The notes under the pieces: generated by a model
Seen by the model: only the letters and a program-made list of their open reading frames with translations
What the model was told of the DNA's origin: nothing
Database searches by the model: none
Assembly: GCF_006345805.1 (NCBI RefSeq)
Contig: NC_043003.1
Span: 26,846,001 to 26,910,000, forward strand
Direction: 5' to 3'
Length of the DNA: 64,000 nucleotides
DNA from: Octopus sinensis
Taxonomy: Eukaryota
Part shown: positions 10,930 through 11,935 of the stretch, piece after piece
Position numbering within the stretch: the first letter of the stretch is position 1
Layout: each line of letters starts with the position of its first letter
Position numbers and translations under genes: made by a program

Positions 10930-11935
10930 CTATCTATCTATCTATCTATCTATCTATATAAATATATATATATAATATATATATATATAATATATTATAT
11001 ATATATATATATATTATATATATATATATATATGTATGTAAATGTATATCTATATCTATCTGTCTGTCTCTCTCTCTCTTCTCTCTCTCTCTCTCTCTCT
11101 CCTATATATATATATATATACATATATGTACATACTTACATATATATGTATATGTATATGCATATATGGGTACAGGACGTCAGAAAACGTAAACAACATG
11201 AAATACGAAGGCAAACCTGTGTATGCGAACAACGAGAGAAACAAATGGAAAACAAGACAGGTAACATAAAGAACGACCCTTCATCAGTTGTTGGCTGTTT
11301 ATCTACTCCACATTTCGGGCAATTCACGACAATATGAGTCTCCCGTGAACCAAAGTAAAATTTGGGATTTGCGGAGGGTCAAAGTTGGTAACAAAAACAG
11401 GAAAGTGGAAACATACAGCAAACCAAATGAAAACAATCATGGAGGGCCGTTAAGCTACACTATGTAAGGTAGCAAGCGCGGGAGTAATATACTTTGACAA
11501 GAGAAAAGATAGGAGAGGAGACAGATAAGAATACGTCTGGTCTGTGCGACAGACTGAAGGAAAAGAAAGATGGACGATGGTCACGTGTGAGCAACGAGAG
11601 AGAATAAAGGAGGAAGAGGGAGAGAGAGACAGAGAGCGAAACAAACAATCAGATAGAACAGAGGAGAAAGAAAAAAAAGAATTAGAGAAAGGATGAAGGA
11701 GAAATGCGAAAGGGAGAGAAGGGGAGAATAAAGAACTAGAAAAGGAAAAGAGAGAGAGAGAACTGTACAGGGTAGAGTCGCCTCAAAATTAAGATAAACT
11801 TACTTGGAAATGGATGCGTACGTTCAATCATATATTGATATAATTATATATATATATATACATATACATAATATACATACATATATGTACATACTTACAT
11901 ATATATTATATATATATATTATCTATATATATATA

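Follow-up and report, generated by a model that had tools for sequence, protein, structure and literature searches.

Four diverged repeats in a 64,000-nucleotide stretch of the 2.7-Gb, microsatellite-rich genome of Octopus sinensis (the window) carry a GAAA block, a GUA and a CUGANGA block in constant order, which raises the question of whether these boxes belong to a self-cleaving RNA and, if so, to which kind. The four stretches, first flagged in a preliminary description, read exactly as reported there and are mutually homologous (blastn E values of 1e-65 to 1e-7 against copy 1). The motif is far from a chance pattern because its exact three-block form has 1,428 matches in the genome of the animal and none for the reversed control. 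It constitutes only the 3' half of the structure; the upstream cleavage block had been missed. We regard it as probable that these repeats are short non-coding retroelement copies with a complete, scrambled hammerhead core that is predicted to be self-cleaving, has its stem II split and was likely cut in the source RNA.

In 30 aligned relatives of copy 1, the block around an upstream NUH forms two stems, stem III with the strand that follows GAAA and stem I with the strand that precedes CUGANGA. The order of the blocks is thus cleavage block, GAAA block and CUGANGA block, the non-circular type-SGC order. From 5' to 3' the parts are X1, hairpin H, X2, a strand of helix J, the cleavage block with the NUH, GAAA, the partner strand of J, CUGANGA and the IIa strand. 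X1, H and X2 abut and precede the cleavage block. Helix IIa is formed by X1 and the strand that follows CUGANGA, and X2 pairs with the strand before GAAA (helix IIb) and supplies G10.1; the strand directly after X2 pairs with the strand leading into stem I (helix J). As predicted from these pairings, the split stem II would form a four-way junction with two helices inserted between A9 and G10.1, hairpin H would stack between the X1 and X2 helices, and helix J would connect stems I and II in the manner of the "I" helix of type-SGC ribozymes. The internal GUA is located in the loop between stem III and J, a loop which we take to be kink-turn-like; by eye the likeness is clear in two further families, F and N (see below), and atypical in families A-D, to which the flagged copies and their relatives belong. 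By their predicted working the repeats would be hammerheads, and by their order they would fall into the non-circular class, without the unbroken block C that is a feature of type SGC.

The preliminary description had read the boxes as a type-II circular permutation that cleaves after the internal GUA, possibly as a dimer. The boxes do occur in that order in all four copies, but no stem I exists inside the G-S-C order in any of them and none can follow GUA, either in cis or in a dimer, so that the proposed rescue by dimerization fails as well. The actual NUH is found upstream, flanked by stems I and III, and covariation links the upstream block to the strand that precedes CUGANGA. Moreover, families F and N lack that GUA and keep the upstream cleavage block. 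Cleavage after GUA in a type-II fold is scarcely credible. A self-contained stem I, of which none had been evident, is formed by the strand before CUGANGA and a strand 12-16 nt upstream of the point at which the motif had been taken to begin (94% of cells paired). The suggested atypical topology and Penelope-like lineage were both supported, whereas the specific permutation did not, the order being SGC rather than type II. The emphasis placed on an upstream partner strand was likewise justified. This strand is intact in copy 4 and imperfect in copy 2; a 16-nt deletion has removed most of it from copy 1. Direct closure of stem II by 4 bp is possible, as had been claimed, but the perfect 4-bp stem of copy 1 requires base 11318, which is peculiar to that copy: a different base occupies this position in 29 of 30 aligned copies and in 147 of 149 reads from one direction of run X11. 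In a comparison with Rfam, which had been recommended, the 150 best of 294 matches included no hammerhead. A GCS order, with the cleavage triplet downstream, was also considered and was abandoned when it failed to hold across copies.

Table 1. Predicted ribozyme copies, their parts and other features of the window
Feature	Position	Strand	Remarks
Copy 1, family A, whole predicted ribozyme	11274..11383	-	Read by eye; deletion from alignment
Copy 1, upstream parts	X1 11383-11375; hairpin H 11374-11343	-	X2 and helix-J strand mostly deleted after 11341
Copy 1, cleavage block	11340-11327	-	Predicted cut between 11333 and 11332
Copy 1, 3' parts	GAAA 11316-11313; CUGANGA 11287-11281; helix IIa strand 11280-11274	-	
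Copy 4, family A	12204..12330	-	Partial-tandem neighbour, 931 nt upstream of copy 1
Copy 4, parts	X2 12289-12284	-	Predicted cut between 12264 and 12263; all helix strands present
Copy 2, family C	15864..15991	+	Core intact
Copy 2, upstream parts	X1 15864-15872; H 15873-15901; X2 15902-15906	+	X2 imperfect
Copy 2, core	GAAA 15947-15950; CUGANGA 15976-15982; IIa strand 15983-15991	+	Predicted cut after 15930
Inverted 5'-truncated arm of copy 2 element	15327..15442	-	Begins about 30 nt downstream of cut position
Copy 3, family B	57205..57252	-	GAAA and CUGANGA blocks only; C3 mutated
Long inverted repeat just upstream of copy 3	57432-57800		Arms roughly 170 bp; miniature-DNA-transposon-like (by eye)
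Copy 5, family F	4002..4147	+	146 nt, intact; absent from the preliminary description
Copy 5, upstream parts	X1 4002-4016; H 4019-4057; X2 4058-4063; J 4064-4070 with 4110-4116	+	
Copy 5, cut and stem I	Stem I 4080-4085 with 4118-4123	+	Predicted cut after 4079
Copy 5, 3' parts	GAAA 4096-4099; CUGANGA 4124-4130; IIa strand 4133-4147	+	
Minimal type-I hammerhead motifs	29976-30015; 40042-40080; 40451-40486	+	Extra base after core, Penelope-like; C3 mutated in the third
U2 snRNA	55497-55690	+	Full match, 184 bits
U2 snRNA, decayed second copy	61392-61587	+	91 bits
Stop-free 171-aa frame	7309-7824	-	By eye, GIY-YIG endonuclease end of Penelope-like element; no Pfam match
Mobile-element fragment, RT piece	757-1296		
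Mobile-element fragment, RT piece	22535-23869	-	RVT_1 at 23390-23869
Mobile-element fragment, RT piece	52065-52946	+	
Mariner-type transposase fragment	29310-29789	-	Transposase_1

The four flagged copies (Table 1) are mostly relics. Copy 1 is decayed by the deletion, which removed X2, and by one stem I mismatch; C3 is mutated in copies 3 and 4, and the X2 of copy 2 is imperfect. Judged from its sequence, copy 4 is likely inactive because core C3 is mutated (12218). Copy 3 starts 9 nt downstream of the predicted cut of family B, beside a CA repeat, and represents a "start-at-cut" stub. The inverted, truncated arm of the copy 2 element is an arrangement typical of Penelope-like insertions.

Genome searches with copies 1, 3 and 2 retrieved 2,923, 2,108 and 1,142 candidates, respectively, and 40 of each were scored. 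As copy 3 lacks the 5' part, the upstream block of its family was written down before the relatives of that copy were viewed; the block then found matched the prediction at all six stem I positions and at the three stem III positions nearest the core, and the fourth stem III position pairs with the other common base of the family. The alignment comprised 64 of 84 anchored copies, 20 having been left out for deletions or unrelated upstream sequence, copy 1 included; the anchoring favours the core and stem I. Across the 64 copies, 85.5% of the cells of the split model are paired, compared with 37-46% in slid controls, and 213 double changes were counted, compared with 79 +/- 10 in shuffles, while the number of pairs carrying a double change is not above that in shuffles (112/500). 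Since the aligned copies are related and stand for only about four independent subfamilies, a count based on subfamily majorities is fairer. By this measure compensatory changes, for which a search had been proposed at the outset, are present at 11 of the 34 pairs of the split model, across all six helices. Stem III is paired in 85% of cells and, like stem I, shows compensatory changes at the subfamily level; helix J reaches 87.4%, compared with 39-61% in slid controls. The X2 helix, which forms the G10.1-C11.1 side of stem II, is 87-92% paired in families A, B and D and 55% in family C, whose aligned register breaks the two X2 pairs nearest the core. Helix IIa of family B is 69% paired. Core columns are conserved to 88-100% and the base at the predicted cut is other than G in 63 of 64 copies, both values being inflated by the anchoring of the set on these motifs.

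The pairing of families A-D would also allow an active form of the ordinary type-SGC kind, with a direct stem II, in which X1-H-X2 serves as an off-switch that sequesters both halves. The preliminary description had named a switch among its readings, and it is a minority possibility for the families treated there. The direct 4-bp stem is 77-96% paired in families A-D (90-96% in A, C and D), and the X2 helix of family C is poor. Arguing against this possibility is the composition of the direct stem, which is rich in G-U pairs; over five pairs it is 74.7% paired in families A-D and its covariation (0.201) is not above that of the slid control (0.210). Pseudoknot-blind folding assigns it 0.00-0.01 expected pairs, which is weak evidence as the method penalises both forms of stem II. 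Helix J directly adjoins X2, which fits a role of X2 as the working strand of stem II, and the direct stem is impossible in family F and in several published elements (see below) in which the split helices are kept. We consider the off-switch unlikely, and the plain type-SGC fold with a direct stem II was likewise demoted. Family C (L061-L090) combines the best direct stem II with the worst X2 helix near the junction and is therefore the family in which a register shift or a two-state switch is most likely.

The split topology is favoured by independent, sequence-unrelated families. A sequence-free descriptor scan of the window gave two hits, compared with 0.175 per resampled window: copy 2 and a new copy, copy 5, which represents family F. 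Copy 5 has all six helices of the split-core design, including an X2 helix of 6 bp, in a sequence unrelated to families A-D, and no direct stem II can form in its family. Family F is young, with 30 loci 95-100% identical, and exact matches in the genome number 1,654, compared with none for the control. Its monomers are spaced 756-857 nt apart; the spacing of copies 4 and 1 is 931 nt. Families F and N, which are unrelated in sequence, share the hammerhead core of families A-D. As an intact natural copy of 146 nt, copy 5 is the best candidate for a cleavage assay, and a single transcription reaction would suffice to test it.

The same design recurs in Naiad elements, a group for which Craig et al. 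2021 (PMC8557442) report, in the accessible part of the paper, no canonical hammerhead and mark eight families, Naiad_Ovul included, as "HHR_half_core". In the supplement to that paper, the split-core design was recognized by eye, among the matches listed, at the ends of two octopus and three Acropora Naiads, in a ctenophore record whose stem I of only 2 bp is braced by a long J, and in one further record in part 12; the names of the records were inferred from the file order. A direct stem II cannot form in the Acropora Naiads or the part-12 record, which keep the split helices. Family N, which carries the Naiad-type motif, matches published ends of octopus Naiads. It has 182 exact matches in the genome, compared with none for the control, and the motif lies about 1 kb downstream and on the same strand at 14 of 30 loci with reverse transcriptase (RT) hits. 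The match of the RT upstream of family N to RVT_1 is weak (E 1e-4) and falls short of the curated cut-off. Beside families A-D and F, no RT was found within flanks of up to 1.5 kb (0 of 179 and 0 of 130 loci, respectively), so that the Naiad-type open frame, with an N-terminal GIY-YIG endonuclease and a C-terminal RT, was not found in these flanks. A search of the genome for an autonomous parent of these families found none. Families A-D and F would thus be non-autonomous, and their link to Naiads rests on architecture. They share with Naiads microsatellite-associated insertion, partial tandems and inverted truncated arms. One locus, L121 (G000:C1:16116170-16116219), combines a Naiad-type stem I with remaining helices that resemble family B; it may connect families A-D to the RT-encoding family.

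If the RNA is cut, copies that start at the predicted site might be expected among the insertions, and such copies were found. The sample consisted of the first 100 of the 1,654 family F matches, picked solely by a 27-mer whose first base lies 38 nt past the predicted cut, and 5' ends were measured by anchored extension against five natural copies. Ends of 38 of the 100 fall within -4 to +13, whereas the interval from -14 to -5 holds none; the rate is about 0.023 per base, and most other bins have 0.001-0.006. Among the 38, three represent internal deletions and another is doubtful; a conservative contrast, with the bin chosen post hoc, is 34 of 89 versus 4 of 55 (p=3e-5). A separate cluster of 17 family F ends at -132 is probably an artefact of the reference. 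Families A-C weakly repeat the pattern in the same bin (17 of 81 versus 4 of 64, p=0.016), in a test whose queries lacked the upstream block, that of family B beginning 10 nt past the cut; the 17 include one tandem duplicate and copy 3 itself. Based on these ends, copies that start at the predicted cut likely record cutting in living cells.

A competing explanation holds that the fold is real but does not cut, serving instead as a signal for RT binding or packaging, such that the accumulation of 5' ends marks a transcription start or a stall of the enzyme. The family F ends are indeed spread over 0 to +13 rather than confined to one base, three or four lie at -4 to -2, and the RT-encoding family N shows no pile-up at the cut (1 of 28). 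Two unrelated families may also share a transcription start at this place. Raw RNA reads, which are unstranded, stem from a related species and are mostly less than 95% alike, show no accumulation of ends at the cut. These reads do contain these families, on both strands, and include changes at both 4082 and 4121 that jointly keep a stem I pair. Against a fold that does not cut is the persistence of the catalytic bases and the NUH across unrelated sequences. In family F the pile-up breaks off sharply on its upstream side at the cut, and a pile-up is seen again in families A-C, which are unrelated to F. Furthermore, the pile-up lies upstream of all 3' helix strands, where a stall would be unexpected, and TA content does not single out its bin. 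A non-cutting signal is improbable, and cleavage at the upstream NUH is the reading that we prefer.

In the model that we propose, the RNA would fold as a monomeric hammerhead with two helices inserted after A9 and would cut itself after the upstream NUH, such that tandem or read-through transcripts would be cleaved. A Naiad-type enzyme acting in trans would prime internally and copy to the cleaved 5' end of the RNA. Cut templates would yield stubs that start at the cut, and uncut or re-joined RNA would yield longer and partial-tandem copies. For one Penelope-like element internal priming has been demonstrated, and the available part of the same report finds hammerhead cleavage dispensable in vitro (PMC11167929). 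By analogy, cutting may be a by-product and not a requirement, because cleavage was dispensable there. Taken more broadly, the evidence leans towards the view that Naiads and their non-coding dependants rewired the hammerhead, as a four-strand split core in molluscs, cnidarians and ctenophores and as type CSG in nematodes, that the split-core form cuts in vivo and that about a third of the family F copies are fossils of the cut.

Hammerheads with additional helices are reportedly described in Weinberg et al. 2015. No description of the split-core fold was found in the literature that was searched. The accessible parts of PMC3088659, PMC10162972, PMC13725137 and bioRxiv 10.64898/2026.09.16.752053 contain no helix inserted after A9. 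The closest relatives are the type-SGC hammerheads (HRIMA-1 and variants; Eckert et al. 2023, PMC10085705), which, according to the portion of the paper at hand, have the same S, G, C order of blocks, stems I and III that cross as pseudoknots, a short linker between the strands of stems I and II, and a helix joining the far sides of these stems, which corresponds to J. They differ in that the strand after CUGANGA is assumed to form stem II with at most 1-2 inserted bases, whereas two inserted helices are predicted here, with G10.1 supplied by a fourth strand. An unbroken block C of that kind is impossible in family F and the Acropora Naiads and weak in families A-D. Type-SGC ribozymes are reported there from metatranscriptomes only, not from the genome of a known organism, and their cleavage was demonstrated; the octopus repeats are present in thousands of copies in an animal genome, with cleavage predicted from sequence.

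Naiads, as described in the available part of PMC8557442, have in common with these repeats (TA)n-associated insertions, partial tandems and inverted truncated arms, and several published 3' ends have the same split-core design, for which the paper proposes no fold in that part. Families A-D and F differ in being non-coding and in having no clear sequence likeness to the Naiad-type motif. The minimal type-I hammerheads (Cervera and de la Pena 2014, PMC4209133, accessible text) occupy the same terminal-repeat position in Penelope-like elements and have likewise been proposed to cut precursor RNA, and their single unpaired base after A9 marks the spot at which two helices are inserted here. Their order is that of circular type I, with a weak or absent stem III and a need for dimers, whereas stem III here comprises 4-6 pairs and a monomer would suffice to close the fold. 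The non-LTR retrozymes of animals (bioRxiv 10.64898/2026.07.22.740005, as far as accessible) are, like the octopus repeats, non-autonomous, ribozyme-bearing, partly tandem and tied to Penelope-like elements; they carry type-I hammerheads in tandem arrays, in contrast to the mostly dispersed copies found here, with monomers of about 0.75-0.95 kb. For the circular RNA intermediate of a retrozyme, the RNA data gave no back-joined reads on two short references, neither of which spans a monomer.

If the repeats cut, their architecture would place helices inside the catalytic core of a hammerhead and would fall outside the six-permutation scheme; as far as the literature was searched, they would also be the first non-circularly permuted hammerhead in an animal genome. 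Cutting would also explain why a large clade of retroelements has been scored as lacking hammerheads. The split-core topology, if true, is one that the published permutation scheme assumes to be impossible. The copies that start at the cut bear on the open question of whether Penelope-type ribozymes cut in vivo and shape insertions.

Type-CSG hammerheads are known from two metagenomic sequences only, according to the accessible part of Eckert et al. 2023 (PMC10085705). Six record ends in parts 13-15 of the PMC8557442 supplement, inspected by eye, appear to be complete hammerheads of type CSG in which stem II is direct and stems III are long. With names again taken from the file order, they apparently belong to nematode Naiads, three of Nippostrongylus, one of Heligmosomoides and two more.
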